From the NCBI RefSeq assembly GCF_057098645.1, contig NZ_CM169472.1: a stretch of 64,000 nt of DNA, one strand, 5' to 3'. The notes under the pieces are model-generated. The model was not told the DNA's origin, made no database searches, and was given only the letters and a program-made list of their open reading frames with translations. The position numbers were made by a program, and so were the translations under genes. This document shows, in pieces, positions 4,902 to 42,875 of this stretch. Every line of letters begins with the position of its first letter. Position 1 is the stretch's first letter.

Positions 4902-4952
4902 AAAACCCCTTCTTATATAGTTCTGTAATATGTTAATTTAGCTGGGCTCTTA

Positions 4953-5708: not shown

Positions 5709-8700
5709 GATTTCATCAAACCAACGCGCAGTATCTGGATGATGGTTTCCACAATACGGTTAACCTGATTCATTCCGGCACCAATTTCCCGGCAGGCCGT
5801 AAACAGCAGTGGTAGCAGACTTGTCTTAACGACTTTCTCAATGTCCTGGGGGTTCAGGGAGTTTTCTGCCACCGCTTTGACGATAATGTTGTCCACGTCA
5901 AAAGCCAGCTTCGTCCACTTATCCTGCACTTGAACGTCTTTTACCACAAAAACCTCAGGTAGCTCTTTTTTAAATACACCGTAATATGCCTGAGCATGCT
6001 TGTTTACCGCCAAAGCATCCGGGATATCACTGAGCTTACGGGCTTTAACCTGTTCTTCAAACTCACGGAATAAGAGGTACTGCTTAAGTGGATGGTCGAA
6101 CAGTTTTTCAGCCTCTTCGATTGCCATACGCAGGAGTCTGGAAAAGGCCTCCTGAGCATACGGATCATCACGCAGCTCCTGCTCAATCATCTTCGTCACA
6201 CGGGTTTTAATGATGTCGGTTTCATTGCGGGTTTTATTGTTATCCCACTCTTCGGGTTTTTCGCTCTTGCCCATTTTACCGACTTCATACACGCCATCCG
6301 GTTCACGAACCTCAACGCCGGTAACATGCTTATCCAGCAATTTTTTCACCTGCTCAGCGTAGTCGTCATAATTGACCTGCTCTCCACTTACCTGCATCGC
6401 CCACTGGCGAAGGCTGGACATCTGTTTTACGGTTTCTTTATAGAGATTTCGGTCTTGTTCCGTAAAGCTCTTGTCGGTGAAGAAGGTAGCGGACTGCAGT
6501 GCCACTTTCAGGCATCCGGCAAAGGCCGTTAACGCCTCGAAGAAATCATCACGGGTTTTCTGATGGATATCGACCATCTCTCCGTCACGTTCTTCCATTT
6601 TAGGCACCAGTACTGCACGTAACTGCTCAGTATCATTTTTGTTTTTAACACCGGCAAATATGGCCCACAACTGGTTATACAGATGCGGCAGACGTTTATA
6701 TTCAGAGCTCATGGCGCTGTACAGCCCGTCAATATCCTTGATGTCGTATCCTCCCTGGGTTCGGGAGGCGAGATCCTGATATTTGCCGATAGTCGTGTCC
6801 AGTTCAGCCAGAATGCCGCGATAATCAATCAGCAGGCCAAACTTTTTCAGTGGATGCAGACGGTTTACCCTTGCAATCGCCTGGATAAGGTTGTGGGACT
6901 TAAGCGGCTTGTCGATATACAGCACGGTATTCTTCGGTTCATCAAATCCGGTGAGCAGTTTATCAACGACGATCAGTAATTTGAGCTTATCATCAGTATC
7001 GAAACGACTGATGATATTGCGGGTATACACAGACTCATCCTGCATGCCGACGTTATCTTTCCACCATTTCGTCACTTCCGGCAGTTTGCTTTCATCCACC
7101 TCAGTATTCCCTTCCCGGGTATCCGGCGGGCTGATAACTACAGCTGACTCAAACAACCCGGCTTCATCAAGATACTTTTTATATTTGATGGCGGAAATCT
7201 TGCTGTCGCAGGCAAGTTGGCCTTTCAGCCCCTCATCAATATTCTTCGAGAAGTGTGTGGCGATATCGAGTGCGATCAGCCGGATGCGGTCATCTGCACT
7301 GTAGACCTCACCTTTACGGGCATATTTACGTTTAAGGTCGGCTTTTTGCGCTTCGCTTAACCCATCGGTAATACGGTCAAACCAGGCATCTATTGCCCGA
7401 TCGTTAACCTCAAGGTCGGGAATACGTTCTTCATACAGCAAAGGTGTAACGGCTTTATCTTCTACCGCTCGCTGCATGGTATAAGCGTGGACAATCGGCC
7501 CGAATTTATTGGTGGTCTTATCTTCTTTTAGCAATGGCGTACCGGTGAATGCCACAAAGGCGGCGTTCGGCAGTGCCAGTTTCATTCGCACATGGTTCTC
7601 ACCCCCCTGGCTGCGGTGTCCTTCATCAATCAGAACGATGATGTCGGGGCTGGTATTGACGCATTCAGGCAATTTTGTCGCTGAGTTAAATTTCTGGATA
7701 AGGGTAAAGATTATACGTTCTTTACCAGAGCCAATCTGCTGTGCCAGCTTCTGACCTGAGGTCGCCATCGCTTTGGCCTTATCATCCTTCCCTGCCAGTT
7801 CGCCACCAGAGACAAAAGTGCCGCTGAGCTGCCCTTCAAGGTCCACGCGGTCCGTCACCACCACAATACGACACTGCTTCAGGCTGTCATGAAGGATCAG
7901 CGCCTTGCTGAGGAATACCATGGTGTAAGATTTACCTGACCTCGTGGTATGCCAGATCACCCCACCTTCCCTGCCCCCGTCTGGTCTGCGGGTACTGATG
8001 CGTTCCAGCAGTCTTTTTATCCCGAACACCTGCTGATAGCGGGCAACAATTTTTCCGGTTTTTTTATCAAACAGGGTGAAGAAGCGGGTCATCTCCAGCA
8101 GACGTTCCGGTGAAAGCAGACTGATGAGCAGCTTATCCTGCCCGCTGACTGCCAGTTCCCCCCCATCGATTAACTGTTGATACCATTTGAGATCGACTGA
8201 AGGACGATGATCAAACAACGCATGAATTTGTTCAGTCGATAACTGATGGTTGCGCAGCGCATACATCTGCGGATCGGTAATATCTTCTTCGCGCCATGCC
8301 GCCCAGAATTTCATTGGCGTATGGCATGTACCGTAGCGCCCGTCATGACCGTTAATCGAAAGTAATAACTGGCTGTAGACAAACAGCTGCGGGATTTCAT
8401 CGTTGAACTGGTTGCGGATACTCTGGGATATCCCCTCGTCAATGGTTGGCCCTTTCTTGCCATGACCAGCCGGGCTTTTCGCTTCAATAACAGCCAGCGG
8501 GATACCATTAACAAAGCAGACAATATCCGGTCTGCGGGTTTCAACACCGCCTGACCGCAATACCGTAAATTCTTCAGTAAAATGGAACTGGTTATTTTCC
8601 GGATGTTCCCAGTCGATCAGCGCAATGGTGGGGTTGACCTTCTTGCCATCGACAAATTCGGTGACGGCGATACCGTAGAGCAGATGGTTATACATCCGTT

Positions 8701-8989
8701 CATTGGCTTTGAGCAGCCCTTCATTCAGCGCCGGAGAACAGACCTGTGATATCAGGTTATCCAGTGCTTTTTCCGATAACTGGCAGTTTTTGCCACCCGC
8801 CATAAAGGAACGCTTCGACAGCTCTTCACGCAGAACCGGACGCAGCACCACCTCATCCTGTTTATAGCCCCGGTAATCCATAATCTGTTTCGGAGATAAA
8901 AACGTCCAGCCGAGGCTGGTCAGTAACGTCAGTGCCGGGATTTTGGCGCTGTATTCTTCCTGGAATTTAGGTTGGTAGTGCTTATCCAC
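5705..8989 (-). CDS. hsdR: Type I restriction enzyme R (restriction/translocase) subunit
   Basis: 1094-aa ORF with helicase-type motifs (e.g. VLIDEGHRSQ DEAH-like box); operon context with hsdM/hsdS. Confidence 0.88.
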   Translation of the reverse strand: MDKHYQPKFQEEYSAKIPALTLLTSLGWTFLSPKQIMDYRGYKQDEVVLRPVLREELSKRSFMAGGKNCQLSEKALDNLISQVCSPALNEGLLKANERMYNHLLYGIAVTEFVDGKKVNPTIALIDWEHPENNQFHFTEEFTVLRSGGVETRRPDIVCFVNGIPLAVIEAKSPAGHGKKGPTIDEGISQSIRNQFNDEIPQLFVYSQLLLSINGHDGRYGTCHTPMKFWAAWREEDITDPQMYALRNHQLSTEQIHALFDHRPSVDLKWYQQLIDGGELAVSGQDKLLISLLSPERLLEMTRFFTLFDKKTGKIVARYQQVFGIKRLLERISTRRPDGGREGGVIWHTTRSGKSYTMVFLSKALILHDSLKQCRIVVVTDRVDLEGQLSGTFVSGGELAGKDDKAKAMATSGQKLAQQIGSGKERIIFTLIQKFNSATKLPECVNTSPDIIVLIDEGHRSQGGENHVRMKLALPNAAFVAFTGTPLLKEDKTTNKFGPIVHAYTMQRAVEDKAVTPLLYEERIPDLEVNDRAIDAWFDRITDGLSEAQKADLKRKYARKGEVYSADDRIRLIALDIATHFSKNIDEGLKGQLACDSKISAIKYKKYLDEAGLFESAVVISPPDTREGNTEVDESKLPEVTKWWKDNVGMQDESVYTRNIISRFDTDDKLKLLIVVDKLLTGFDEPKNTVLYIDKPLKSHNLIQAIARVNRLHPLKKFGLLIDYRGILAELDTTIGKYQDLASRTQGGYDIKDIDGLYSAMSSEYKRLPHLYNQLWAIFAGVKNKNDTEQLRAVLVPKMEERDGEMVDIHQKTRDDFFEALTAFAGCLKVALQSATFFTDKSFTEQDRNLYKETVKQMSSLRQWAMQVSGEQVNYDDYAEQVKKLLDKHVTGVEVREPDGVYEVGKMGKSEKPEEWDNNKTRNETDIIKTRVTKMIEQELRDDPYAQEAFSRLLRMAIEEAEKLFDHPLKQYLLFREFEEQVKARKLSDIPDALAVNKHAQAYYGVFKKELPEVFVVKDVQVQDKWTKLAFDVDNIIVKAVAENSLNPQDIEKVVKTSLLPLLFTACREIGAGMNQVNRIVETIIQILRVGLMKS

Positions 8990-10865: not shown

Positions 10866-11549
10866 TCAGTGCAGGCAGCACTTTTTAAATTTTTTACCAC
10901 TGCCACACTGACACGGGTCATTACGACCGGGCAGTTTTTCTGCCCCCTTCACGGGAACAGGCCGGGATGATGCCTCTGACATTCTCACCGACAACCAGTG
11001 CTGGTAAAGCGCCAGTGCCGCAGGCTGAATGAGAGTAATACTCTGTTCAAATTGAACAGGTGACATTTTCTCAACCACTGGGAAGTTCTTTTCAATACCA
11101 TGAAGGGCTATCGCCTCCAGCGAGGGACGTAAGGCCTCTGGCAAGGCTGACCAGTCATCCAGAGACCGGCCTTTCATATACCCGAAACACCACTCTTCGA
11201 CGATGGTATATGTCTTCCCCTTCACCTCACGTCCATTGAAAATCGGTTCAAACTGTTCAGGGGCCTCATACAGGCAGCCAGCGATATCGTTCATATGCTG
11301 AAAACACAGCCCCACAAAACGCGTCATCTCTTTTTCAGTGGTCCAGCGAGGGTGGTAATCACCTCGCCCCCAGATAGCACTGAGCCAGGTATTAGGGGAA
11401 ATCGTATTCGGGCCAGAGACAATCGCCGTCAGAAAGCCATCCAGCTCAGAGAAACAGAGCACAGAGTCATCATTGCCGTATTTCATCAACACCTCTTCCA
11501 GCCAGTCGATTTCCCGGTCAATCAGCGGCCCGCTTTTCGTCAGTTTCAT
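10866..11549 (-). CDS. YecA-like UPF0149 / SEC-C motif protein (island-borne paralog of core yecA)
   Basis: 227-aa ORF alignable over its whole length with YecA (1199..1864), roughly half identical by eye; same C-terminal [20 protein letters not shown] motif; start abuts the hsdS stop. Confidence 0.8.
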   Translation of the reverse strand: MKLTKSGPLIDREIDWLEEVLMKYGNDDSVLCFSELDGFLTAIVSGPNTISPNTWLSAIWGRGDYHPRWTTEKEMTRFVGLCFQHMNDIAGCLYEAPEQFEPIFNGREVKGKTYTIVEEWCFGYMKGRSLDDWSALPEALRPSLEAIALHGIEKNFPVVEKMSPVQFEQSITLIQPAALALYQHWLSVRMSEASSRPVPVKGAEKLPGRNDPCQCGSGKKFKKCCLH

Positions 11550-12189: not shown

Positions 12190-13245
12190 GCTTTGTTGAA
12201 TAAATCAGATTTCGGGTAAGTCTCCCCCGTAGCGGGTTGTGTTTTCAGGCAATACGCACGCTTTCAGGCATACCTGCTTTCGTCATTTTGTTCAGCGCTC
12301 GTACCAGGGCCATAGCCTCCGCAACCTGACCATCGTAGTCACGCAGCGTCAGTGAACCCCCGAACAGCTGTTTTACCCGGTACATCGCCGTTTCCGCTAT
12401 CGAGCGACGGTTGTAATCTGTTGTCCATTTCCACCGCGCATTACTCCCGGTCATTCGCTGATTAGCCACTGCACGGTTACGGTCTGCATATTCACCGGGC
12501 CAGTAGCCCGCACCTTTTCGGGGAGGGATAAGCGCGCTGATTTTCTTACGCCGCAGTTCATCGTGACATAGCCGGGTATCGTAAGCGCCATCGGCGGCGG
12601 CTGACCTGATTTTCCGGTGGGTTTGCCGGATTAACCCGGGGAAGGCCTCTGAGTCCGTAACGTTGTTCAGCGACAGGTCTGCACAGATGATTTCATGTGT
12701 TTTACTGTCAACGGCGAGATGCAGCTTACGCCAGATACGGCGGCGTTCCTGGCCATGCTTTTTGACTTTCCACTCGCCTTCACCGAAGACCTTCAGCCCG
12801 GTGGAATCAATCACCAGATGTGCGATTTCACCCCGGGTGGGCGTTTTGAAACTGACATTAACCGACTTTGCCCGCCTGCTGACACAGCTGTAATCCGGGC
12901 AGCGTAGCGGAACGTTCATCAGAGAAAAAATGGAATCAATAAAGCCCTGCGCAGCGCGCAGGGTCAGCCTGAATACGCGTTTAATGACCAGCACAGTCGT
13001 GATGGCAAGGTCAGAATAGCGCTGAGGTCTGCCTCGTGAAGAAGGTGTTGCTGACTCATACCAGGCCTGAATAGCTTCATCATCCAGCCAGAAAGTTATG
13101 GAGCCACGGTTGATGAGGGCTTTATTGTAGGTGGGCCAGTTGGTGATTTTGAACTTTTGCTTTGCCACGGAACGGTCTGCGTTGTCGGGAAGATGCGTGA
13201 TCTGATCCTTCAACTCAGCAAAAGTTCGATTTATTCAACAAAGCC
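12190..13245 (-). mobile_element. IS5-family (IS903-group) insertion sequence, copy 1
   Basis: ~1057 bp; terminal inverted repeats GGCTTTGTTGAATAAATC at both ends; flanked by 9-bp target-site duplication GTGAGAAGC (12181..12189 and 13246..13254). Confidence 0.85.
12245..13213 (-). CDS. IS903-group (IS5 family) transposase
   Basis: 322-aa ORF; DDE transposase with ...LIDSTGLKVFGEGEWKVKKHG...WRKLHLAVD... region; identical protein encoded at 28742..29710. Confidence 0.88.
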   Translation of the reverse strand: MKDQITHLPDNADRSVAKQKFKITNWPTYNKALINRGSITFWLDDEAIQAWYESATPSSRGRPQRYSDLAITTVLVIKRVFRLTLRAAQGFIDSIFSLMNVPLRCPDYSCVSRRAKSVNVSFKTPTRGEIAHLVIDSTGLKVFGEGEWKVKKHGQERRRIWRKLHLAVDSKTHEIICADLSLNNVTDSEAFPGLIRQTHRKIRSAAADGAYDTRLCHDELRRKKISALIPPRKGAGYWPGEYADRNRAVANQRMTGSNARWKWTTDYNRRSIAETAMYRVKQLFGGSLTLRDYDGQVAEAMALVRALNKMTKAGMPESVRIA

Positions 13246-13815
13246 GTGAGAAGCTTTTCCGTCACCGAAATCGCCTCATCCCAGGTTGACAGAATTTTAA
13301 CGATTCTCTTTTGTTCAGACAGTGGGGGGATATTAAATGGCCACTTAAACCAACTATCTAACTTAAAAATCATTTTCTCTATGTGCACACCAATGCTAGA
13401 GTGGAAGCAGGTTTGCTGGAAATATAGAGACTCCGATAGAAATTCCATATAAGGAAGATAAAAACCGGACTTCCCTGTAAGCACACAATATTCATTCGAT
13501 ACAATTGAGCCAGAAAGTTCTTTAGGTACAAGACCGCAAGCACCGTGCACAATTTGTCGTTTTGATATGAGAAAGTCGCCTTCTTTAATATAGAATTGAC
13601 TTTTTACGGAGATATCTTTTCCTTTAAGATGCTCACGTCTTATTACGCCACCTCTGGAGCGCTTTACTGTAACTAAGTCATACTCTTGATTATCTTGTAT
13701 ATATGCCTTTCTTGCCTCTATATTTAAGCACTTTTCTAATGATAACTTTTGCCATCCTGTAGGTAGCATTCCAAGGATCGGTTTTCCAGCTTTAACGCTC
13801 ACTGGGTAAAGCGAA

Positions 13816-15339
13816 TCACGAGCCATAACCCAACTCCTTCAAATACCCTGCCATCTCAACTTCCAGCTTCGCCAGTTCCACCTTCAGTTGCTCACGCTCT
13901 GCTCGCACCGCCACCAGGTCAATCTCATCCTCTTCTTCAAAGGTATCGACATAGCGCGGAATATTGAGGTTGTAATCGTTGTCCTGAATTTCCTTCAGGC
14001 TGGCAAGATAGGCGTATTTCTCGACGTTATCGCCATCACGGTAGGTCTTGACGATTTTCTTAATGTTTTCTTCGCTAAGCTGGTTCTGGTTTTTACCTGC
14101 CTTGAATTCACGGCTGGCATCGATAAACAGCACCTTGTCATCAACTTTCTACTTTTTGAAAATCAGAATCGCAGCCGGAATCCCCGTACCGTAGAACAGT
14201 TTTTCCGGCAGACCAATTACCGCATCCAGCAAATTTTCGTCGATCAGTTTCTGGCGAATTTTACCTTCGCTGGAGCCACGGAAAAGCACACCGTGTGGCA
14301 CAACTACGCCCATACGGCCAGTTCCCGGTTTCAGGGTTTCGATCATATGCGAGATAAAAGCGTAATCTCCTTTAGTCTTCGGCGGTACACCGCGACGAAA
14401 ACGGCCAAACTTATCGTTCTCGGCCTCGTCATGGCCCCACTTATCGAGGCTGAACGGTGGGTTAGCGGTCACGATATCAAACAGCATCAGGTCGCCATTT
14501 TTATCGAGCAGCTTCGGGTTACGAATGGTATCGCCCCACTCGATTTTATGGTTGTCTTCCCCGTGCAGGAACATATTCATTTTCGCCAGCGACCACGTAG
14601 AACCGATCGCTTCCTGACCGAACAAGGCATAGTTACGACTATCATGCCCGGAGACAATTTTACGCCCACACTTCATCAATAATGAACCGGAACCACAGGC
14701 TGGATCGCAGATGGTATCACCCGGTTGCGGATCGAGCAGTTCTGCAATCAGGTCCGAAACTTCCGGCGGGGTATAGAACTCCCCGGCTTTCTGCCCACCG
14801 CTGGCGGCAAAGTTTTTGATCAGGTATTCGTAAGCATTGCCGATAACGTCCAGCGTACCGACACGACTCGGCTTCAGGTTGAGATCTTCACCGGCGAAGT
14901 CTTCCAGTAGCTGACGCAGTATGGTGTTTTTCTGTTTTTCTTCGCCAAGACGATCGGTGTTAAACGAAATATCCTGGAACACGCTTTTCCCGGCATCTTT
15001 CAGTTTGGTTCCGTTGGCTTCTTCGATTGCATGCAGAGCCTGATCGATACGCTCACCGTTACCCAGCTCATGGCGGCGTTCGTACAGCGCATAAAAGCTG
15101 GCACTTTTTGGCAGTACAAAACGCTCGTTGGCCATCATCGCTTCAATCAGTTCCGGCGCATCGCCATACTGTTCTTTGTATTCGTCATAGTGATCCTGCC
15201 AGACATCTGAAATGTACTTGAGGAACAGCATGGTAAGGATAAAGTCTTTATAGGTATCAGCACTGATGGTGCCACGGAACGTATCACACGCGGCCCACAG
15301 GGCTTTGTTGATCGTGTCCTGACTGATTTTGTCGTTCAT
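13816..15339 (-). pseudogene. hsdM: Type I R-M methyltransferase subunit hsdM with in-frame amber stop
   Basis: ORFs 14149..15339 (396 aa, N6-adenine MTase motifs incl. ...IVTANPPFS...) and 13816..14133 (105 aa) are in the same frame, separated by a TAG at 14149..14151. Confidence 0.75.
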
Positions 15340-18126: not shown

Positions 18127-18269
18127 TTTCTTAATATAATGGCGACATGGAATTGTGTTGCCATTATATCCGAATCAGAATTTTTCACCTGATGAACTGT
18201 GAAAACTGAGACTGGCAGACAGTAATCTCGCACCGTATTTTTTCTGTGTTATTTTACAGGAGAAATACG

Positions 18270-19400
18270 ATGCCCATTCTGGATCTGCGTTTCAGCAACA
18301 AATCACTTCACCAACTTCCCCATCCCCTCACGGGCTGTCAGGAATACCGTGATATTCACTGCCAAAACCTGCGTGCTCTGGTGTATCCCAATCGGATCAC
18401 GCTGGCCTTTCGTGCCACTATAAACAATCAGCGTATATATGAACCCCTGGGTCAGTTCCCTCAGCTCTGCGTTGAGGATGCCCGTCAGCATGTGATGAAA
18501 CTGCTTGCTGATAAAAATCGTCTTGCGGTTCAGTCCCGTCGATTCACTGTGGAACAGGCCATCAATGACCTGTGGCTACCGGATTTGCAGTTGTATAAAA
18601 AGAGTCCTCAGTCAGAGTTGTCAAAACTCAACCTCTACGTTCGCCCGTTCTGGGGCAAGCGGCAACTTCGCGACATCACGGCAGGAGAACTAGAACAATA
18701 TGCTGCTGGCTTACGGGAAAAATTACGTCCGTCAACAGTAAACCGTATCCTCGCAATATTGTCCAAAATATGCTCTCTGGCAGTACGTGCTGGATGGATC
18801 ACGCATTCCCCGATGTCACATGTCCGCTATCTGAAAGAAAATAACATTCGCTATCGCACACTATCAGCGACAGAAATCCCGCGCTTTATTGACGCGGCAA
18901 CAGCGCTGCAAACACCGGCAGCTGATTCTATATTGCTTGCTCTTTATACGGGGATGCGTATTGGTGAGGTATGTACCCTGAAATGGGAGTACTGGCACCT
19001 GGATATGCATCAACTCATACTGCCTGATACAAAGTCCGGACACCCTTTCACCTGCCCACTTGCACCTCCAGCCATTGCAGTTGTCCAGTGCCAGCAGGAC
19101 CTGATGCTCAGCAAAACTTACATTTTTCCGCGACTAACCGACAATGCCCGCCCTCTGGCATATCCGCGTGCAACCTTTGCCCGTATTTGCCGGGATGCCG
19201 ACATTGATAACCTGCGGATGCATGACCTGCGCCGTACCTTTGCCACCCGGGTACTACAGGCGACCGGGGATATTGCAATCGCTTCCCATCTGCTAAATCA
19301 CCATTCACTCACGGCGACCCGTCGCTACGCTTTTCACAATGCAGCGACATCACACGCAGTGGTTTCTCAGGTCATTGAAAGTTATGACACGAAAAAATGA
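18270..19400 (+). CDS. Tyrosine recombinase / phage-type integrase
   Basis: 376 aa from the ATG at 18270, which is preceded by AGGAG; C-terminal catalytic region ...HDLRRTFATRVLQ...HLLNHHSLTATRRYAF (R..H..R..Y). Confidence 0.85.
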   Translation: MPILDLRFSNKSLHQLPHPLTGCQEYRDIHCQNLRALVYPNRITLAFRATINNQRIYEPLGQFPQLCVEDARQHVMKLLADKNRLAVQSRRFTVEQAINDLWLPDLQLYKKSPQSELSKLNLYVRPFWGKRQLRDITAGELEQYAAGLREKLRPSTVNRILAILSKICSLAVRAGWITHSPMSHVRYLKENNIRYRTLSATEIPRFIDAATALQTPAADSILLALYTGMRIGEVCTLKWEYWHLDMHQLILPDTKSGHPFTCPLAPPAIAVVQCQQDLMLSKTYIFPRLTDNARPLAYPRATFARICRDADIDNLRMHDLRRTFATRVLQATGDIAIASHLLNHHSLTATRRYAFHNAATSHAVVSQVIESYDTKK

Positions 19401-19786: not shown

Positions 19787-20113
19787 ATGACTAAAAATAC
19801 TCGTTTTTCCCCTGAAGTCCGTCAACGGGCAGTCCGTATGGTTCTGGAAAGTCAGGGCGAATATGACTCACAATGGGCGACAATTTGTTCCATTGCTCCA
19901 AAGATTGGCTGTACGCCGGAGACTCTGCGTGTCTGGGTTCGCCAGCATGAGCGGGATACCGGGGGCGGTGATGGAGGGCTCACCACCGCTGAACGTCAGC
20001 GTCTGAAAGAGCTGGAGCGTGAAAATCGTGAACTGCGCCGCAGTAACGATATCCTTCGCCAGGCTTCCGCTTATTTTGCGAAGGCGGAGTTCGACCGCCT
20101 CTGGAAAAAATGA
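19787..20113 (+). CDS. IS3-family transposase OrfA (HTH)
   Basis: 108-aa [22 protein letters not shown]..., typical IS3-family OrfA with leucine-zipper-like C-terminus. Confidence 0.85.
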
Positions 20114-21000
20114 TGCCACTGCTGGATAAGCTGCGTGAGCAGTACGGGGTCGGACCGCTATGCAGCGAACTGCATATTGCCCCGTCAACGTATTACCACT
20201 GTCAGCAACAGCGACATCATCCGGATAAACGCAGTGCCCGTGCGCAGCGCGATGACTGGCTGAAGAAAGAGATACAGCGCGTATACGATGAAAATCACAA
20301 GGTATACGGTGTGCGTAAAGTCTGGCGTCAGTTGTTACGGGAAGGTATCAGAGTGGCCAGATGCACTGTGGCACGTCTCATGGCGGTTATGGGACTTGCC
20401 GGTGTTCTCCGGGGTAAAAAGGTCCGTACGACCATCAGCCGGAAAGCCGTTGCCGCAGGCGACCGCGTAAACCGTCAGTTCGTGGCAGAACGACCTGACC
20501 AGCTGTGGGTGGCTGATTTTACTTACGTCAGCACATGGCAGGGCTTCGTCTATGTGGCGTTCATCATTGATGTGTTTGCCGGATACATTGTGGGGTGGCG
20601 GGTCTCATCGTCCATGGAGACGACATTCGTGCTGGATGCACTGGAGCAGGCGTTATGGGCCCGTCGACCGTCCGGCACGGTCCATCACAGTGATAAAGGT
20701 TCTCAGTATGTATCGCTGGCCTACACACAGCGGCTTAAGGAAGCCGGATTACTGGCATCAACAGGAAGTACAGGCGACTCGTATGACAACGCGATGGCGG
20801 AGAGCATCAATGGTCTTTACAAAGCGGAGGTAATACACCGTAAGAGCTGGAAAAACCGTGCAGAAGTGGAACTGGCCACACTCACGTGGGTGGACTGGTA
20901 TAACAATCGACGATTGCTGGAAAGGCTGGGCCATACTCCTCCGGCAGAAGCAGAAAAAGCTTATTATGCTTCCATCGGAAACGATGATCTGGCAGCCTGA
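20110..21000 (+). CDS. IS3-family transposase OrfB (DDE integrase-like catalytic domain)
   Basis: 296-aa ORF with DDE motif region (...WVADFTYV...HHSDKGSQY...[10 protein letters not shown]...). Confidence 0.85.
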
Positions 21001-22434: not shown

Positions 22435-23970
22435 TCAGTGGTAGTAGCCCGGACCACGCAGGTTTTCATGCTCTGAAGCATATGCCGGATGTTGTTCGCC
22501 CTGGCGGGATAATGGAAGCTCCAGGTTCTCCCGATGGTGACGCAGCAGATTGTCGATAAAGCGTCTGTCAGGGGCGTTATAGTGCAGGGCAACGTAACAG
22601 GCCTTTTCCAGCCGTTCCGGGCCGTATTTTTTCTGAAGTGCCAGCAGCCCCAGAACTGCACGATAAGCCAGTTCCGGATGGGGTTTTGCCTTCAGCATGG
22701 ATTCAACCACCCGGCCTGTGGACGGGCCCGTACGTTTTCCCTGCTCGATCAGGCGTTCCGGTGTCCATGTCCCGTGCTGCCGGTGGCGCTCTGGCATGTG
22801 AAGCGGATTGGTTGTGTGTTTATATTCATGTGTGCTGCGCGGATGTTGCGCCACACACTGCCCCTTGTGCCAGAGCTGTACCACCGACTGCCCCGCCTTC
22901 AGTGACAGACGCTGACCGACCAGTTCGTGTGGAACGGAGTACCAGTGACGGGCATATTCAACGTGGTAGTCAGGGCCAACCTTCACAGCTTTGTATTCCG
23001 TGTATTCATAAGGTGCCAGAGGCAGCGGAGAGAGTGCTGGCGCATCCAGTATGCGGAAGCGTTCTGCACGGGTTTGATTGCCGTACCCCTTCATTGGCCG
23101 GTTATTCATGTCTGTCAGTAACTCCCTAAGGCGCGCATTCAGCGCCCTGAGCGTGTGGAAGGTTTCATTACGGATGCGGGCAAGAAGCCATCGTTCAACG
23201 ATGAGGACGCCGTTTTCTGCTTTTGGTTTATCTTTAGGTTTGCGTGGTCGGGCCGGGATGATAACCGTGCCATAGTGCTCAGCCAGTGCCTGATAACTGT
23301 CGTTGATGACAGGCTCATATCGATCGGCCTTTTTCACTGCGCTTCTGAGGTTATCGGGGATGAGCAGCTTCGGTACGCCGCCCAGGAAGGTCAGGCAACG
23401 GCTGTGGGCATTTAACCATGACATCATGTCCTGACCTTCGCACGCTTCAACGTAGGTATAGTTGGACGCCCCCATTACGGCCACGAAGATTGCCACGCGG
23501 CGTATCTCACCGGTGTCCGGATTAATAACAGGAACCGTAGGACCACAGAAGTCGATAAAAAGCTTTTCGCCGGCACGATGCTCCTGGCGCATGGAGAGAC
23601 GTCGCGTTTTTTTCCACTCCCGGTAGCAACGGCAGAAGTGCGAGTATCCCATCGCTTTGTTACCCGCCTGTGCCTTGTATTCCATCCACAACAGTTGCCG
23701 CGTCACACCTGGTTTTCTCATTTCCGTATCGAAGTACAACATGTCAGGCATTACAAGCTCTGATGCAAAGGTGTCTTTGGGCGGAAAAATGAGTTTCTCC
23801 AGCGTGTCATGGGATATATCAGCAGGTAATGGCCATGACAGAGAAGAGGCTTTGAAGCGGGCAAGAACCTCAAAAACGGTTGAGGCGCTGATGTGTAACG
23901 TCAGTCCGATACAACGGTTAGTCAGCTTCTTGTCGAACTTGAGCTGAAGGATCTTAAAACAGGTTTCCAT
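22435..23970 (-). CDS. istA: IS21-family transposase IstA
   Basis: Large ORF 22435..24081 with N-terminal HTH and DDE catalytic region; start uncertain (internal Met chosen); overlaps istB start, as typical for IS21. Confidence 0.75.
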   Translation of the reverse strand: METCFKILQLKFDKKLTNRCIGLTLHISASTVFEVLARFKASSLSWPLPADISHDTLEKLIFPPKDTFASELVMPDMLYFDTEMRKPGVTRQLLWMEYKAQAGNKAMGYSHFCRCYREWKKTRRLSMRQEHRAGEKLFIDFCGPTVPVINPDTGEIRRVAIFVAVMGASNYTYVEACEGQDMMSWLNAHSRCLTFLGGVPKLLIPDNLRSAVKKADRYEPVINDSYQALAEHYGTVIIPARPRKPKDKPKAENGVLIVERWLLARIRNETFHTLRALNARLRELLTDMNNRPMKGYGNQTRAERFRILDAPALSPLPLAPYEYTEYKAVKVGPDYHVEYARHWYSVPHELVGQRLSLKAGQSVVQLWHKGQCVAQHPRSTHEYKHTTNPLHMPERHRQHGTWTPERLIEQGKRTGPSTGRVVESMLKAKPHPELAYRAVLGLLALQKKYGPERLEKACYVALHYNAPDRRFIDNLLRHHRENLELPLSRQGEQHPAYASEHENLRGPGYYH

Positions 23971-24594
23971 AGTGCTCCTGGATTTTCTCTTTCTGGACAT
24001 TGACGTCTCCACTGGTTTAAACACGGCAATGGAGACTGTGGTGAAAAGAGTTAATTCCCGGAGTGACTGGCAGGATGCCAATCAATGATCGGAAGCATGC
24101 CAAATCGTGATCGATTGTGATGCCAAACTGTGATCGGAGATGGATGCCAAATCATGATCGATTCGAATGCCAAACTGCGATCGATTCAGATGCCATTTTG
24201 CAGCCGGGGGGGACGAACTCCCGGCATTTTTTCGGAGTTAACTATGAGCAATAATTTGCAGGACATCCTCGCTGCCGCATCGGGGTATCAGTCCGTGACT
24301 TCAGAGCCAGCGCTCAATCTTAAAAGACCTAAAACGCTTGATGATTATCCTGTGATACCACCTGCATCAAAAAAAGTATCTGTTATTTCAAGTGACCTGA
24401 CACTCCATATCGGTTTTGATACCGAATATGTTTTCAATCCTGAAACACAACAGAATGATATTCTGTCATATCAGAGTTATGTTGTCTTACCCGATAATAC
24501 AGGTATATCGAACATTATCTATCCACCTGACTCACAGAAAAAATCCCGGCTGTCTTTTAAGAACTTTCTCTGTCAAACGATTATGGATTTGCCC

Positions 24595-28709: not shown

Positions 28710-29766
28710 GGCTTTGTTGAATAAATCGAACTTTTGCTGAGTTGAAGGATCAGATCACGCATCTTCCCGACAACGCAGACCGTTCCGTGGCAAAGCAAAA
28801 GTTCAAAATCACCAACTGGCCCACCTACAATAAAGCCCTCATCAACCGTGGCTCCATAACTTTCTGGCTGGATGATGAAGCTATTCAGGCCTGGTATGAG
28901 TCAGCAACACCTTCTTCACGAGGCAGACCTCAGCGCTATTCTGACCTTGCCATCACGACTGTGCTGGTCATTAAACGCGTATTCAGGCTGACCCTGCGCG
29001 CTGCGCAGGGCTTTATTGATTCCATTTTTTCTCTGATGAACGTTCCGCTACGCTGCCCGGATTACAGCTGTGTCAGCAGGCGGGCAAAGTCGGTTAATGT
29101 CAGTTTCAAAACGCCCACCCGGGGTGAAATCGCACATCTGGTGATTGATTCCACCGGGCTGAAGGTCTTCGGTGAAGGCGAGTGGAAAGTCAAAAAGCAT
29201 GGCCAGGAACGCCGCCGTATCTGGCGTAAGCTGCATCTCGCCGTTGACAGTAAAACACATGAAATCATCTGTGCAGACCTGTCGCTGAACAACGTTACGG
29301 ACTCAGAGGCCTTCCCCGGGTTAATCCGGCAAACCCACCGGAAAATCAGGTCAGCCGCCGCCGATGGCGCTTACGATACCCGGCTATGTCACGATGAACT
29401 GCGGCGTAAGAAAATCAGCGCGCTTATCCCTCCCCGAAAAGGTGCGGGCTACTGGCCCGGTGAATATGCAGACCGTAACCGTGCAGTGGCTAATCAGCGA
29501 ATGACCGGGAGTAATGCGCGGTGGAAATGGACAACAGATTACAACCGTCGCTCGATAGCGGAAACGGCGATGTACCGGGTAAAACAGCTGTTCGGGGGTT
29601 CACTGACGCTGCGTGACTACGATGGTCAGGTTGCGGAGGCTATGGCCCTGGTACGAGCGCTGAACAAAATGACGAAAGCAGGTATGCCTGAAAGCGTGCG
29701 TATTGCCTGAAAACACAACCCGCTACGGGGGAGACTTACCCGAAATCTGATTTATTCAACAAAGCC
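28710..29766 (+). mobile_element. IS5-family (IS903-group) insertion sequence, copy 2
   Basis: Same ends as copy 1 (GGCTTTGTTGAATAAATC inverted repeats), inverted relative to copy 1; flanked by 9-bp target duplication CCGTGCCGT (28701..28709 and 29767..29775). Confidence 0.85.
28742..29710 (+). CDS. IS903-group (IS5 family) transposase
   Basis: 322-aa ORF identical in sequence to the one at 12245..13213. Confidence 0.88.
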   Translation: MKDQITHLPDNADRSVAKQKFKITNWPTYNKALINRGSITFWLDDEAIQAWYESATPSSRGRPQRYSDLAITTVLVIKRVFRLTLRAAQGFIDSIFSLMNVPLRCPDYSCVSRRAKSVNVSFKTPTRGEIAHLVIDSTGLKVFGEGEWKVKKHGQERRRIWRKLHLAVDSKTHEIICADLSLNNVTDSEAFPGLIRQTHRKIRSAAADGAYDTRLCHDELRRKKISALIPPRKGAGYWPGEYADRNRAVANQRMTGSNARWKWTTDYNRRSIAETAMYRVKQLFGGSLTLRDYDGQVAEAMALVRALNKMTKAGMPESVRIA

Positions 29767-30578: not shown

Positions 30579-30708
30579 CAGGCACAAAAAAACCACCCGG
30601 AGGTGGTTTCACGACACTGCTTATTGCTTTGATTTTATTCTTATCTTTCCCATGGTACCCGGAGCGGGACTTGAACCCGCACAGCGCGAACGCCGAGGGA
30701 TTTTAAAT
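30579..30708. repeat. Right direct repeat (attR): leuZ 3' end plus downstream terminator region
   Basis: 130 bp matching 1986..2115 with one mismatch; overlaps the intact tRNA-Leu 3' 56 nt. Confidence 0.85.
30586..30612 (-). terminator. Rho-independent terminator of the glyW-cysT-leuZ tRNA operon
   Basis: Minus-strand hairpin aaccacc-tccg-ggtggtt followed by a T7 run immediately 3' of leuZ. Confidence 0.7.
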
Positions 30709-30739
30709 CCCTTGTGTCTACCGATTCCACCATCCGGGC
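30653..30739 (-). tRNA. leuZ: tRNA-Leu (anticodon UAA)
   Basis: 87-nt sequence GCCCGGATGGTGGAATCGGTAG...CTCCGGGTACCA on the minus strand; anticodon loop TTTAAAA; long variable arm; encoded CCA. Confidence 0.9.
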
Positions 30740-30751
30740 TCGGGAAGAAAG

Positions 30752-30825
30752 TGGAGGCGCGTTCCGGAGTCGAACCGGACTAGACGGATTTGCAATCCGC
30801 TACATAACCGCTTTGTTAACGCGCC
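30752..30825 (-). tRNA. cysT: tRNA-Cys (anticodon GCA)
   Basis: 74-nt GGCGCGTTAACAAAGCGGTTATGTAGCGGATTGCAAATCCGTCTAGTCCGGTTCGACTCCGGAACGCGCCTCCA on the minus strand. Confidence 0.9.
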
Positions 30826-30878
30826 AAATTCTTCAGGCCTTTCAGCCAGACATCCGCTGACGCCGATGTCTTTTAAAC

Positions 30879-30954
<76 letters not shown>

Positions 30955-40746: not shown

Positions 40747-40772
40747 AGAAAAAACCCCCGCCGGTGGCGGGG
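40747..40772 (-). terminator. Rho-independent terminator downstream of fliC
   Basis: Minus-strand hairpin ccccgccaccggcggggg followed by a T6 run. Confidence 0.6.
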
Positions 40773-40800
40773 AAGCACGTTGCTGACAAATTGCGCTTTA

Positions 40801-40910
40801 TGTTGCCGGATGCGGCGTAAACGCCTTACCCGGCCTACAAAAATGTGCAAATTCAATAAATTGCAATTCACCTTGTAGGCCTGATAAGCGCAGCGCATCA
40901 GGCAATTTGG
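40801..40910. repeat. REP / BIME-type repetitive extragenic palindromes
   Basis: gccggatgcggcgtaaacgccttacccggcctac and taggcctgataagcgcagcgcatcaggca units typical of E. coli REP sequences, between fliA and fliC. Confidence 0.7.
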
Positions 40911-40946
40911 CGTTGCCGTCAGTCTCAGTTAATCAGGTTACGACGA

Positions 40947-42680
40947 TTAACCCTGCAGCAGAGACAGAACCTGCTGCGGTACCTGGTTAGCTTTTGCCAG
41001 CACGGAGTTACCGGCCTGCTGGATGATCTGCGCTTTCGACATGTTGGACACTTCGGTCGCATAGTCGGCGTCCTGAATACGGGACTGCGCTTCAGACAGG
41101 TTAGTAGTGGTGTTGTTCAGGTTGGTGACTGCGGAATCCAGACGGTTTTGCACCGCACCGAGGGAAGAACGGAATTTGTCGATGGAGCTGATCGCTTCGT
41201 CCAGAGCTTTCAGGGGATCGGCGGTGGTTGCAGCTTTAGTTTCAGCGTCAGTAGTAAAATTACCATCCGCTGAAACATAGACTGCTTTACCTGAACCATT
41301 GGTCACAGTTCCGTCTTTTTGCAAAAACAGATTGGTTGTATTATCGGTAGTCAGTGAACCATCAGCTTTGGTGTAAGCATCTTCAAAACCTGTACCTGTG
41401 TGTTGTTGTACTATACCTTTACTATCAACTTTAATATCGCCTGCGCTGGTACCAGTAGTTCCAACATCAACCGTGAATCCTGTGGACTTAGTTGCCGATT
41501 GAAGAGACTCAGCACTCATTCTTGCATTTGCTACAGTGATTGTACCAGAAGTAGTAGCATCAGTACCGCCAGCCAGAGTGAAGGTTGTTTCATCTTCAGT
41601 TGTAATTACCGTAGATACGGCATCCGGTGTGCCTGTTGTATGCCAGTTTTTAGTCAGTGCATCAAGAGTGGCTGCTTTGACAGTCCCAGCATTGTTTTGA
41701 GTGAGGTTACCATCTACGTCAATAAATAGTTCTGAACCATCTTTCGCGGTAATTTTGCCATCGCTCGCCAGAACAACATCAACAGATGTCGTACCGATTT
41801 TGACGCTCAGGTTAGCTGTATCACCTGCTTTTGGTGTCAGGAAGGATTGCAGAGCTGCGCTGTTACTATCACCGACCGCAGCAGCAGCAATGCTGGCATT
41901 GAAAGTGAAATCATTTGTAGCTTTATTGTAGGTGTAGTCTGTAGCTGCTGCACCAAAACCGTTGGAAATGCTAGCATTAACAACAGCACCATCTGCAAGG
42001 TTTGCAAACACGTTTGCTGCTGTGGCTTTGTTAAGCCCTGCGTCTACGGTATATTTGGTCACGCCGTCAGTACCGACAGCAGGAGTTGTACCCGCAGCAG
42101 CAGCAGCCAGTTCATCTTTAGTCGCTGCAGTATTAGCCACAGCCCCGCCACCATTCACATTAAACCCACTCAGCCCCAGCGTATCTGAGTCAATTTTCTT
42201 CAGATCAATAGTGATAGTCTGGCCGTCATTCGCACCAACCTGAATTTTCATTGAACCGTCTTTCGCCAGTACGTTCACGCCGTTGAACTGGGTCTGGCCA
42301 GATACGCGGTCAATTTCGTCCAGACGGGATTTGATTTCGTCCTGAATGGAGTCCAGATCCGAATCGGAGTTAGTCCCGGTAGAAGCCTGAACCGTCAGTT
42401 CACGGATACGCTGTAAGTTGTTGTTGATTTCGGACAGCGCGCCTTCGGTGGTCTGTGCAACAGAAATACCGTCGTTGGCGTTACGTGCAGCCTGAGTCAG
42501 GCCTTTAATATTAGAGGTGAAACGGTTAGCAATCGCCTGACCTGCGGCGTCATCCTTCGCGCTGTTAATACGCAAGCCAGAAGACAGACGCTCGATAGAA
42601 CTCGACAGCGCAGACTGGTTCTTGTTGATATTATTTTGAGTGATCAGCGAGAGGCTGTTGGTATTAATGACTTGTGCCAT
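40947..42680 (-). CDS. fliC: Flagellin (H antigen) with long variable central domain
   Basis: 577-aa ORF; conserved N-terminus (MAQVINTNSLSLITQNNINKNQSALSSSIERLSSGLRINSAKDDAAGQAIANRF) and C-terminus (...QVPQQVLSLLQG); Thr/Ala/Gly-rich central region. Confidence 0.93.
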   Translation of the reverse strand: MAQVINTNSLSLITQNNINKNQSALSSSIERLSSGLRINSAKDDAAGQAIANRFTSNIKGLTQAARNANDGISVAQTTEGALSEINNNLQRIRELTVQASTGTNSDSDLDSIQDEIKSRLDEIDRVSGQTQFNGVNVLAKDGSMKIQVGANDGQTITIDLKKIDSDTLGLSGFNVNGGGAVANTAATKDELAAAAAGTTPAVGTDGVTKYTVDAGLNKATAANVFANLADGAVVNASISNGFGAAATDYTYNKATNDFTFNASIAAAAVGDSNSAALQSFLTPKAGDTANLSVKIGTTSVDVVLASDGKITAKDGSELFIDVDGNLTQNNAGTVKAATLDALTKNWHTTGTPDAVSTVITTEDETTFTLAGGTDATTSGTITVANARMSAESLQSATKSTGFTVDVGTTGTSAGDIKVDSKGIVQQHTGTGFEDAYTKADGSLTTDNTTNLFLQKDGTVTNGSGKAVYVSADGNFTTDAETKAATTADPLKALDEAISSIDKFRSSLGAVQNRLDSAVTNLNNTTTNLSEAQSRIQDADYATEVSNMSKAQIIQQAGNSVLAKANQVPQQVLSLLQG

Positions 42681-42699: not shown

Positions 42700-42770
42700 C
42701 AAGTCGTTGATTACGTATTGGGTTTCCACCCGTCGGCTCAATCGCCGTCAACCCTGTTATCGTCTGTCGT
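42700..42770 (-). promoter_or_regulatory. fliC promoter region (sigma-28 dependent, approximate)
   Basis: Upstream of the fliC start on the minus strand; contains a GCCGACGG element resembling the sigma-28 -10 (GCCGATAA); exact -35 not confidently placed. Confidence 0.35.
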
Positions 42771-42875
42771 AAAACAACCTTTAGAATTTTTTTCACAAAC
42801 AGCCATTTTTTGTTAGTCGCCGAAATACTCTTTTCTCAGCCCCTTATTCCCGCTATTAAAAAAAACAATTAAACG

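Follow-up and report, generated by a model that had tools for sequence, protein, structure and literature searches.

Flagellin, the product of fliC, is the protein whose subunits assemble into the filament of the flagellum. The flagellin of E. coli K-12 MG1655 (b1923, antigen H48) has 498 aa. Classical H28 genes are represented by those of SE11 (O152:H28, 1740 bp) and of the type strain HW30 (O132:H28, 1752 bp), and H46 by the gene of O26:H46 strain 5306-56 (AY250024). The subtype fliC-H28[O145] (LN555740; WP_000079704.1) was described as 1743 bp/580 aa long, this being the only length given, and 92% identical to the H28 type strain; it is carried by EHEC O145:H28 and EPEC O28:H28 (Beutin, Delannoy & Fach 2015, PMC4441469). 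In the same study 28 of the 36 O145:H28 isolates were non-motile, and the O145-specific fliC-H28 PCR cross-reacted with H46 strains. Among the long-form, sheath-forming (ODS) flagellins of EPEC H6 (7SN7/7SQJ) and EHEC H7 (7SN4), residues N319 and N323 of H7 belong to the D4 dimer site (Kreutzberger et al. 2022, PMC8931119).

The gene analysed here is assigned to this known H28 flagellin, the O145-type allele of the E. coli O145:H28 lineage. The locus as a whole is very probably explained by an H28/O145-type fliC that carries a patch of H46 sequence, has lost three of seven GCT repeats by slippage, is transcribed from a sigma-28 promoter and ends at an intrinsic terminator.

The fliC gene and its neighbourhood

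The window, i.e., the whole 64,000-nucleotide stretch of DNA that was analysed, contains a real, intact and ordinary flagellin gene, far beyond chance, and none of the results speaks against this identity. Its parts and the flanking signals are as follows.

40947..42680, minus strand: fliC coding sequence, H28 flagellin, assigned to the O145-type allele (ORF, Pfam, nucleotide and protein comparison)
42156..42680, minus strand: conserved N-terminal core D0/D1, aa 1-175 (Pfam, K-12 comparison, long helices in the AF2 model)
41226..42155, minus strand: hypervariable outer region, aa 176-485, the H-antigen determinant (composition, lack of K-12 alignment, AF2)
40947..41225, minus strand: conserved C-terminal core D1/D0, aa 486-577 and the stop codon (Flagellin_C, K-12 comparison)
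42757..42783, minus strand: putative sigma-28 (FliA) class 3 promoter of fliC, TAAAGGTT-N11-GACGATAA (motif scan, K-12 identity)
40749..40943, minus strand: fliC 3'UTR, putative equivalent of the K-12 sRNA FliX, with REP-like hairpins (K-12 alignment)
40755..40773, minus strand: predicted intrinsic terminator of fliC, a GC-rich hairpin followed by a T run (terminator scan)

The reading frame runs from an ATG to a TAA over 1734 nt and encodes 577 aa. The first-pass annotation had described a 577-codon fliC with both terminal flagellin domains intact and a Thr/Ala/Gly-rich centre, and on the first point the ORF and the Pfam matches agree: Flagellin_N (PF00669) covers aa 5-140 (E 1.5e-46, 158.3 bits against a cut-off of 26.6), FliC (PF12445) aa 347-481 (E 1.5e-31) and Flagellin_C (PF00700) aa 490-575 (E 5e-32, 110.5 bits against a cut-off of 23). 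The composition is likewise as described, with T at 17.4%, A at 16.8% and G at 10.6%, together 44.8%, over the 310 aa of the central region (aa 176-485), from which Cys is absent. The two terminal domains, in a locus flanked by fliA and fliD and preceded by a sigma-28 promoter, place the product in the FliC/FljB family. The conserved aa 1-175 and 486-577 make up the helical D0/D1 core from which the filament is built, and the 310-aa middle folds into the surface-exposed outer domains with the H antigen.

The gene order is canonical, dcyD-tcyJ-fliZ-fliA-fliC / fliD-fliS-fliT-amyA, and 19 other flagellar genes are full length and 97.8-100% identical to those of K-12. The motif at 42757..42783, which we take to be the fliC promoter from the established sigma-28 consensus, has no second match anywhere in the window, the expectation from shuffles being 0, and its sequence is identical to that of K-12; a scan for sigma-70 promoters gave fewer hits than the shuffles, none of them relevant. 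Downstream, the 3'UTR can be aligned gaplessly, a few substitutions apart, to the segment of K-12 that carries the ncRNA annotation fliX, and it folds with -72 kcal/mol (z = -2.5). Since a scan of the fliC flanks at the Rfam gathering threshold found no family, the FliX assignment comes from the alignment to the K-12 annotation only. The terminator is conserved in K-12 and in the O145:H28 lineage. Transcription of fliC would thus run from the K-12-identical sigma-28 promoter to the intrinsic terminator past the FliX-like 3'UTR.

The K-12 gene shares with this fliC the locus, the promoter, the 3'UTR and the D0/D1 core: aa 1-175 differ from K-12 by 11 mismatches (~94% identical), and 88 of the 92 residues of aa 486-577 are identical (96%). 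The outer regions, in contrast, do not align; in the protein comparison aa ~225-485 find no partner, and in 60-nt blocks of the central ~930 nt identity to H48 is 5-47%, too low to count as a real alignment. The K-12 H48 allele was therefore rejected as a candidate, only the two ends of the gene having a counterpart in b1923, and the match of the centre to H48 that the first-pass annotation had named as evidence against its claim was not seen over aa ~176-485. The K-12 length given there, about 500 aa, is close to the actual 498 aa. The proposal that the centre is longer than in K-12 is borne out as far as length goes, the K-12 outer region being 79 aa shorter, but the centre is a different, unalignable region and not an extended K-12 one. 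A serotype other than that of K-12, also proposed, turns out to be H28, O145 subtype, by the comparisons below, and the suggested non-K-12 background agrees with the 24-kb flank of fliC, which is 99.9% identical to genomes of the O145:H28 lineage.

Assignment to the O145 subtype of H28

Along the gene itself, nucleotide identity to O145:H28-lineage genomes is 99.4-99.8%. The protein is 100% identical to FliC of O145:H28 strains (RM12581 and others) save for one poly-Ala run, with 5 Ala here and 8 there, and at the nucleotide level the differences from RM12581 fliC amount to a 9-bp contraction and one synonymous change. The same holds for the published fliC-H28[O145]: the protein is the same outside that one run, 1 nucleotide difference is synonymous, and the flanks and the genomic lineage are shared. 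Identity to classical H28 is 92%, as reported for the subtype. All 6 published H28 and H28[O145] PCR oligonucleotides match the gene exactly (0 mismatches), at two sites.

41909..41992, minus strand: match of the O145-specific fliC-H28 primers and probe, gene nt 689-772 (three oligonucleotides, 0 mismatches)
41600..41698, minus strand: generic fliC-H28 real-time PCR target (three oligonucleotides, 0 mismatches)

The O145-specific site is displaced by -9 nt relative to LN555740, where it lies at nt 698-781. The gene also departs from the published length, having (GCT)4 and 1734 bp/577 aa as against (GCT)7 and 1743 bp/580 aa. Because the whole deficit sits in the (GCT)n tract, we assign the 577-aa gene to the fliC-H28[O145] subtype as a length variant and not as a separate allele. 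Judged by the sequences compared, 580 aa with (GCT)7GCG is the standard length of the O145-type allele and 577 aa is not. The H28 antigenicity of the 5-Ala form is presumably that of the 8-Ala form.

An H46-derived patch in the outer region

The O145-type gene is a mosaic of classical H28 and H46 sequence.

41757..42111, minus strand: recombinant patch of H46 origin in an H28 backbone, covering gene nt ~570-924 and aa ~190-308 (informative sites, block identities)

The 404 informative sites follow classical H28 up to nt 555, an H46-like type over nt 570-924 and classical H28 again from nt 933. Compared with classical H28, with which it shares the serotype designation, the gene is 98.7% identical over nt 1-530 and 99.0% over nt 951-1734, so that the classical-H28-like portion takes in the core together with roughly two thirds of the outer part; over the wider block of nt 531-950, identity falls to 70%, the classical gene has no GCT tract but reads DLAAAQLLAP there, and the O145-specific oligonucleotides do not match it. 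The relation to H46 (strain 5306-56 and the P0047-type gene of 575 aa) is the reverse, with 96% identity over nt 531-950, 93% over nt 1-530 and 73% over nt 951-1734. A full-length H46 allele was rejected, as only nt ~570-924 follow H46 and the gene is 73% identical from nt 951 to the end. The KDEL-poly-Ala run and a second Ala-rich stretch are also present in H46, and both Ala tracts of the gene fall inside the patch.

These patterns suggest that ~360 bp (aa ~190-308) of a classical H28 gene were exchanged for H46 sequence via homologous recombination, with the junctions placed in locally conserved stretches. Because ~80% of the gene follows H28, an H46 patch probably entered an H28 gene, rather than H28 ends being joined onto an H46 gene. 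Strain labels could not name the donor, since the P0047-type (H46-like) fliC occurs in 1 of 5,426 complete E. coli genomes and that genome has no serotype label; it was named H46 from the type-strain row in S1 Fig of Beutin et al. (PMC4441469) and from the primer-mismatch signature 0/1/1. The H28/H46 recombinant nature of the O145-type gene explains the published PCR cross-reaction with H46 strains. Literature searches, with the H-antigen survey of Wang et al. 2003 outside their scope, returned no account of an H28/H46 recombinant or of the repeat polymorphism; neither ‘recombination’ nor ‘mosaic’ occurs in the main text of Beutin 2015. The S1 Fig of that paper does show the H28/H46 pattern.

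Length variation at the GCT tracts

Two in-frame microsatellites, located by alignment and regular-expression search, encode the Ala runs.

42093..42107, minus strand: Ala tract 1, (GCT)4GCG, A192-A196 (alignment to other genomes)
41877..41888, minus strand: Ala tract 2, (GCT)3GCG, A265-A268 (repeat scan, cluster variants)

Perfect trinucleotide repeats of at least 4 units occur twice in the 64-kb window, both times in fliC, whereas the shuffle mean is 0.17. Tandem Repeats Finder did not report the GCT tracts; its sole hit, a period-12 repeat at 41409-41438, was taken as chance given its weak score of 39.

The difference between 577 and 580 aa is that between (GCT)4 and (GCT)7 at tract 1. Other genomes have (GCT)5, 6 or 7 there, and public proteins have 5-10 Ala. 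Among public contigs, the 580-aa form is found on at least 1000, the 579-aa form on 375, the 578-aa form on 46 and the 577-aa form on 51; the exact 577-aa protein is thus already deposited (51 contigs/87 index blocks; the NCBI, ENA and Logan assemblies in question are independent of one another). The tract changes among very close relatives: RM11626 and RM12581 have 0 substitutions over 23.4 kb and differ in tract 1 only, five genomes 0-11 substitutions apart in 23.4 kb show four tract-1 lengths, and the n=6 state is found in two sublineages split by marker SNPs as well as in the divergent strain E7-1N7. Tract 2 varies too, with 3 Ala in the cluster members P0007 and P0012. By these comparisons tract 1 qualifies as a recurrent slippage hotspot, at which replication slippage would have turned the standard (GCT)7GCG into the (GCT)4GCG found here. 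Of two (GCT)4 carriers, one (L014) has every one of the window's five private variants and the other (L015) has none; a single origin of the n=4 state and recurrent contraction to it are both possible. The variation in tract length is probably neutral. Like a contingency locus, the repeat differs in length among very close relatives; on/off switching by length is absent, the 3-nt unit lying within the ORF and all lengths seen being in frame.

Predicted structure and similarity to sheath-forming flagellins

In the AF2 model the outer region is mostly beta, with pLDDT 81-95. A helix at the entrance of this region spans residues 188-194 in the 5-Ala form and 188-197 in the 8-Ala form; elements after tract 1 are offset by +3 in the 8-Ala model and otherwise unchanged, and a short helix at 165-168, in the low-confidence segment 162-179, is not called in the 8-Ala model. 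The contraction is therefore predicted only to shorten the short entrance helix by about one turn.

The top Foldseek matches are 7SN4, 9N59, 7SN7 and 7SQD (E 1e-24 to 1e-38), with H7 at ranks 1-2, Azotobacter 9N59 at rank 3 and H6 at rank 4; an Achromobacter flagellin is also among the best fold matches. Global superposition on the solved filaments was uninformative, with TM-scores of only 0.33-0.38, since core and outer region stand at another angle to each other in the monomer model than they do in a filament; the fold similarity therefore rests on the Foldseek E-values and sequence identity. The H6 and H7 flagellins match over the full length (E 1e-182 and 1e-159) and, like the present protein, are long-form; overall identity is 61% and 56%, identical cores included, the outer regions being only moderately similar. 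The D4 dimer-site asparagines are conserved within the following motif.

41685..41711, minus strand: GNLTQNNAG motif, aa 324-332, aligned to the H7 D4 dimer site (HMMER alignment to 7SN4)

In this alignment N325/N329 fall on H7 N319/N323, and 39 homologues show no variation at G324, N325, L326, Q328, N329 or G332. The outer region appears to resemble those of the sheath-forming H6/H7 flagellins, which suggests that H28 outer domains may adopt a sheath-type packing.

Alternative interpretations

The ~120 outer-region residues of H46 origin, the closeness of nt 531-950 to H46 and the pick-up of H46 strains by the O145-specific PCR would fit an allele that specifies not H28 but H46, a new H type or a specificity mixed from H28 and H46. 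We consider this extremely unlikely, as carriers of the 8-Ala form are serotyped H28 when motile (8 of 36 O145:H28 strains, and O28:H28; PMC4441469). Residues ~309-485, about two thirds of the outer region, are 98-100% identical to classical H28, with just 25-75% identity to H46 in most 20-aa blocks, and the generic H28 oligonucleotides match the gene, while on the H46-like gene they either meet at least 6 mismatches or fail to match. Judged by its sequence fliC would be expressed; given that most O145:H28 isolates are non-motile, a filament need not be formed even where fliC is intact. The gene may be phenotypically silent, in a strain that is non-motile (H-) like most of its lineage, with the allele a genotyping marker only; this reading is plausible, if somewhat doubtful. 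The proportion of 28 non-motile strains in 36 (PMC4441469) speaks for it, as do one lineage genome whose fliC is split by an IS3 element and another that is labelled O145:NM although its fliC is intact. Against it, the window contains fliC, the sigma-28 promoter, fliA, fliZ, fliD/S/T and fliE-R in intact, K-12-like form, the flhDC, flg and mot/che regions falling outside.

An error of sequencing or assembly at a repeat of low complexity could also account for the length of 577 aa, the true gene having 580 aa; short repeats can be miscalled, and none of 5,426 complete E. coli genomes has (GCT)4. Such an error is scarcely credible, since a repeat of 12-21 bp fits well inside single reads, the contigs with the 577-aa protein come from independent assemblies and represent at least two haplotypes, complete genomes contain the 578- and 579-aa intermediates, and the change keeps the frame. 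The GCT tracts might be selected contingency loci, at which rapid in-frame changes of length adjust the antigenic surface or the way the outer domains pack, instead of sites of neutral slippage. No other site across 23.4 kb of near-identical genomes varies nearly as much as tract 1, both tracts vary, H46 varies at the same run (6 vs 7 Ala), and AF2 places tract 1 within a helix that leads into the outer region. Selection is nevertheless unlikely: the 8-Ala form dominates heavily in the contig counts given above, AF2 predicts helix length as the only change, and the Gly/Thr/Pro loop after the tract could absorb length shifts. Neutral slippage in an H28 gene of the O145 subtype remains our preferred reading.

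Significance for typing and for the O145:H28 lineage

The usefulness for strain typing that was expected of this gene is confirmed, fliC typing as H28, O145 subtype. By this type the strain would belong to, or lie close to, the EHEC O145:H28/EPEC O28:H28 lineage, which ranks among the main non-O157 EHEC groups, and a positive result is predicted in the published fliC-H28[O145] PCR. The GCT repeat is unstable in length, and typing by allele length or exact match, as well as cgMLST, should therefore expect variant alleles of 577-582 aa. Both the allele and the 577-aa protein were already known, and the understanding of flagellin biology is unchanged. A further idea, which we regard as very unlikely, is that the two GCT tracts, which came in with the H46 patch, act as a tunable spacer where the outer region begins, slippage varying antigenicity or sheath packing while the filament is kept; frequent one-codon slippage would alter the helix length and with it the register of the outer domains at the filament surface or their orientation there. 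If true, an E. coli flagellin would contain a contingency-like locus that works in frame, and the O145:H28 lineage would gain rapid heritable variation.

The fliC gene and its H type

The flagellin gene reported in the first-pass annotation is present as described, on the minus strand, which had not been stated. Its terminal flagellin domains, described as intact, are both recovered by Pfam together with a middle domain.

Features of fliC and its flanks
40947-42680, minus strand: fliC, ATG to TAA, 1734 nt, 577 aa
aa 5-140: Flagellin_N (Pfam, E 1.5e-46)
aa 347-481: PF12445, FliC middle domain, enterobacterial family (Pfam, E 1.5e-31)
aa 490-575: Flagellin_C (Pfam, E 5e-32)
42093-42107: Ala tract 1, perfect trinucleotide repeat (GCT)4GCG
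41877-41888: Ala tract 2, A265-A268
42757-42783: promoter-like motif TAAAGNTT-N11-GNCGATAA
40773-40755: GC-rich hairpin followed by a T run

The 310 residues between the conserved ends (aa 176-485) are indeed rich in Thr, Ala and Gly (17.4%, 16.8% and 10.6%), and a composition count found no Cys among them. The gene is flanked by dcyD, tcyJ, fliZ and fliA on one side and by fliD, fliS, fliT and amyA on the other, in the K-12 order, and the flanking proteins are 97.8–100% identical to those of K-12. FliC of K-12 MG1655 (H48) has 498 aa against the 577 found here, close to the length of about 500 given earlier. BLASTP aligns the two proteins at their ends alone, with 11 mismatches in the ~175 N-terminal residues and 88 identities in the C-terminal 92. 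The centre, for which comparison with the K-12 H48 allele had been proposed, does not match it: no BLASTP alignment was obtained between the aligned ends, and identity over gene nt ~540-1440 was 5–47% per 60-nt block, which is no real alignment. As the ends and neighbours are K-12-like and the centre is unalignable, the middle of fliC is an island of divergence in an ordinary core region.

Full-length fliC matches were found by megablast in 96 of 5,426 complete E. coli genomes. In 27 of these the identity was at least 98%, and every serotype-labelled one was O145:H28, O145 or O145:NM; the remaining matches were at about 92%. The protein equals FliC of O145:H28 strains (e.g., RM12581, WP_000079704.1) save for the length of one Ala run, beyond which a synonymous T/C at gene nt 1302 is the single DNA difference from the RM12581 gene. 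The allele sequenced from O145:H28 and O28:H28 strains (1743 bp, 580 aa) is only 92–92.5% identical to those of the H28 type strain HW30 (1752 bp) and SE11 (1740 bp), and two PCRs were designed, a generic fliC-H28 and an O145-specific fliC-H28[O145] assay (Beutin, Delannoy & Fach 2015, PMC4441469). All six published oligonucleotides match the window without mismatches, at positions offset by exactly -9 nt, while classical H28 fliC (SE11, HW30) matches the generic set only. Additionally, the 24 kb around fliC are 99.9% identical to chromosomes of the O145:H28 lineage. The allele identity, oligonucleotide matches and flank identity therefore place this fliC in H28, O145 subtype. Both the different H serotype and the non-K-12 background proposed earlier are thus borne out, the background being related to EHEC O145:H28.

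H28/H46 mosaic structure of the allele

Differences from classical H28 cluster in the middle of the gene: identity is 70% over nt 531-950, against 98.7% before it (gene nt 1-530) and 99.0% after it (nt 951-1734). No other complete E. coli genome offered a better match to the divergent segment. The protein encoded by this segment is 85% identical to Enterobacter flagellins and 94% identical to P0047, a 575-aa E. coli flagellin, compared with 84% to P0047 overall. A three-way comparison with classical H28 and P0047-type DNA used 404 sites that distinguish these two parental types. The window agrees with classical H28 as far as nt 555, with the P0047 type over nt 570-924, and once more with classical H28 from nt 933. 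The P0047 sequence agrees across the diagnostic stretches with the O26:H46 type-strain row in S1 Fig of Beutin et al., and the P0047-type gene has none, one and one mismatches to the O145-specific oligonucleotides, the pattern published for H46 in that assay (PMC4441469). Judged by these sequence agreements, the P0047 type is H46. Taken with the three-way pattern, this makes the O145-type allele a recombinant in which a patch of ~360 bp from H46 sits within an H28 gene, and it explains why the O145-specific PCR was reported to cross-react with H46.

Both ends of the patch fall within locally conserved sequence, …VANTAATK… and …DVVLASDGKITAKDGS…, and the first GCT tract starts a few bases inside the 5' junction. 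The same Ala run in H46 is (GCT)4(GCG)3 and varies in length, with six Ala in the type strain and seven in P0047. The words 'recombination' and 'mosaic' are absent from the main text of PMC4441469, and no other description of an H28/H46 recombinant was found in the literature searched, the scope of which did not extend to the 2003 survey of Wang et al.; no priority is claimed.

Length variation of the alanine tracts

Ala tract 1 holds the entire difference between 577 and 580 aa. It reads (GCT)5GCG in UTME-3 and (GCT)6GCG in RM11626-C1, C325 and E7-1N7; the 22 remaining intact complete genomes have (GCT)7GCG, and four units occur in none of the complete genomes. The exact 577-aa protein is already public on 51 contigs (e.g., EFA4761915.1, UniRef UPI00181350B9); the 580-, 579- and 578-aa forms occur on at least 1000, 375 and 46 contigs, respectively, and a 582-aa form with 10 Ala is also public. 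RM11626 (six units) and RM12581 (seven) show zero substitutions over 23.4 kb of shared flank, the repeat being their sole difference. Two sublineages, told apart by marker SNPs at positions 30600 and 30929 of the window, both contain six-unit tracts, which recur in the divergent strain E7-1N7, and four tract lengths are spread over five genomes differing by 0–11 substitutions. The tract thus behaves as a slippage hotspot and unlike a clonal marker. All five private variants of the window are also present in the public assembly GCA_050371875.1, which is evidently the same clone; SRR5579190, another carrier of four units, has none of the five.

Perfect trinucleotide repeats of at least four units occur twice in the 64-kb window, both being GCT/Ala tracts in fliC (shuffle mean 0.17). 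Tract 2 has three or four Ala in public sequences. The evidence for selection of the tracts as a tunable spacer is weak.

Predicted structure of the filament protein

With 39 diverse homologues as input, AlphaFold2 models an outer region (aa ~180-480) that is mostly beta, with pLDDT of 81–95, and a helical core of lower confidence, as is expected of a monomer. Tract 1 falls within a short helix at the entrance to the outer region, predicted to span residues 188-194 with five Ala and 188-197 with eight. All later elements are offset by three residues and otherwise the same, except that a short helix at 165-168, in the low-confidence segment 162-179, is not called in the 8-Ala model. The simplest reading of these models is a tolerated change in helix length.

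Among solved structures, Foldseek ranks the filaments of EHEC O157:H7, Azotobacter, EPEC O127:H6 and Achromobacter highest (E 1e-38 to 1e-24). Of the solved flagellins, those of H6 and H7 also stand nearest in sequence. In such filaments three outer domains (D2-D4) form a sheath by dimerising or tetramerising, and mutation of the H7 D4 dimer site N319/N323 disrupts the sheath and impairs motility (PMC8931119). The H7 pair aligns with N325 and N329 of the window protein, inside GNLTQNNAG, in columns invariant across the 39 homologues. By analogy of fold, sequence and conserved Asn residues, a sheath like that of H6 and H7 is plausible in H28 filaments.

Expression signals and flagellar neighbours

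The fliC-fliD intergenic region differs from that of K-12 at 3 of 271 positions. The motif at 42757-42783, which has the form of a sigma-28 class 3 promoter, is identical to that in K-12 and is the sole match in the window, with none in shuffles. At 42838, between the divergently oriented promoters of fliC and fliD and ~55 nt upstream of the sigma-28 -35 element of fliC, the window clone has a private substitution; K-12 and the remaining O145:H28 genomes share one base there. Downstream of fliC, a stretch of ~195 nt, which carries the sRNA annotation FliX in K-12, is conserved with no gaps and ends in the hairpin at 40773-40755. In E7-1N7 (4738-4903 of its locus) the fliC-fliA region is ~160 nt shorter, its FliX-like 3'UTR lacking the REP-containing part and keeping the terminator hairpin; the FliX region is therefore not shared by all genomes with this fliC type.

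The genes fliA, fliZ, fliD, fliS, fliT and fliE-fliR are of full length, and no flagellar defect is predicted from the window, outside which flhDC and the flg and mot/che regions lie. The fliD gene of GCA_050371875.1 has lost 9 bp in frame within a repetitive Thr/Ser-rich stretch (window-equivalent 43169-43177; 465 vs 468 aa). The window's own fliD is of full length, and the deletion is a second small in-frame indel in the filament genes of this clone. Among the O145:H28 isolates of Beutin's collection, 28 of 36 were non-motile (PMC4441469). An IS3-family insertion interrupts fliC in RM9154-C1 (NZ_CP031353.1), an O145 genome of the lineage, and offers a ready explanation for at least some non-motile O145 isolates.

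Other features of the window

Left of the tRNA-Leu/Cys/Gly cluster (30656-30954), positions 1-30600 form a mosaic, IS-riddled defence island outside the core genome; over the part queried (1-25000), none of the 5,426 complete E. coli genomes carried at least 80% in one place. In O145:H28 strain RM12581, this tRNA site is occupied by a P2-like prophage instead. A type I restriction-modification system (12245-15339) looks disrupted.

Features of the defence island
2463-4334: DUF262/HEC-06 protein
5705-8989: type I restriction R subunit
10866-11549: PDC-S12
12245-13213: DDE (IS5-like) transposase gene, directly adjoining the half-size hsdS
13215-13826: half-size hsdS, single specificity domain
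14149-15339: hsdM-like ORF, 396 aa, matching only the N-terminal ~370 positions of methyltransferase profiles
18246-19400: phage-type integrase
20068-21000: IS3 element with ALIL frameshift pseudoknot
22435-24081: Mu-type transposase
28742-29710: second copy of the DDE (IS5-like) transposase, identical scores

Relative to K-12 YedL (159 aa), yedL (49674-50150) has an in-frame stop near its start, and in lineage genomes the annotated product is a GNAT acetyltransferase of 146 aa that starts at a codon further downstream. Between yedL and fliE (~50291-51430) lies a pseudogene of the leucine-rich repeat T3SS effector espR3, annotated 'internal stop' in O145:H28 genomes and carrying an additional 1-bp deletion in the window clone (about 51117-51123); K-12 has the yedN pseudogene at that place.

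Concluding remarks

The earlier finding is correct but ordinary, since both the gene and its allele were already known, and its value, as first suggested, is in strain typing. The H28/H46 mosaic and the hypermutable in-frame GCT tracts neatly explain details of the allele and do not amount to discoveries.
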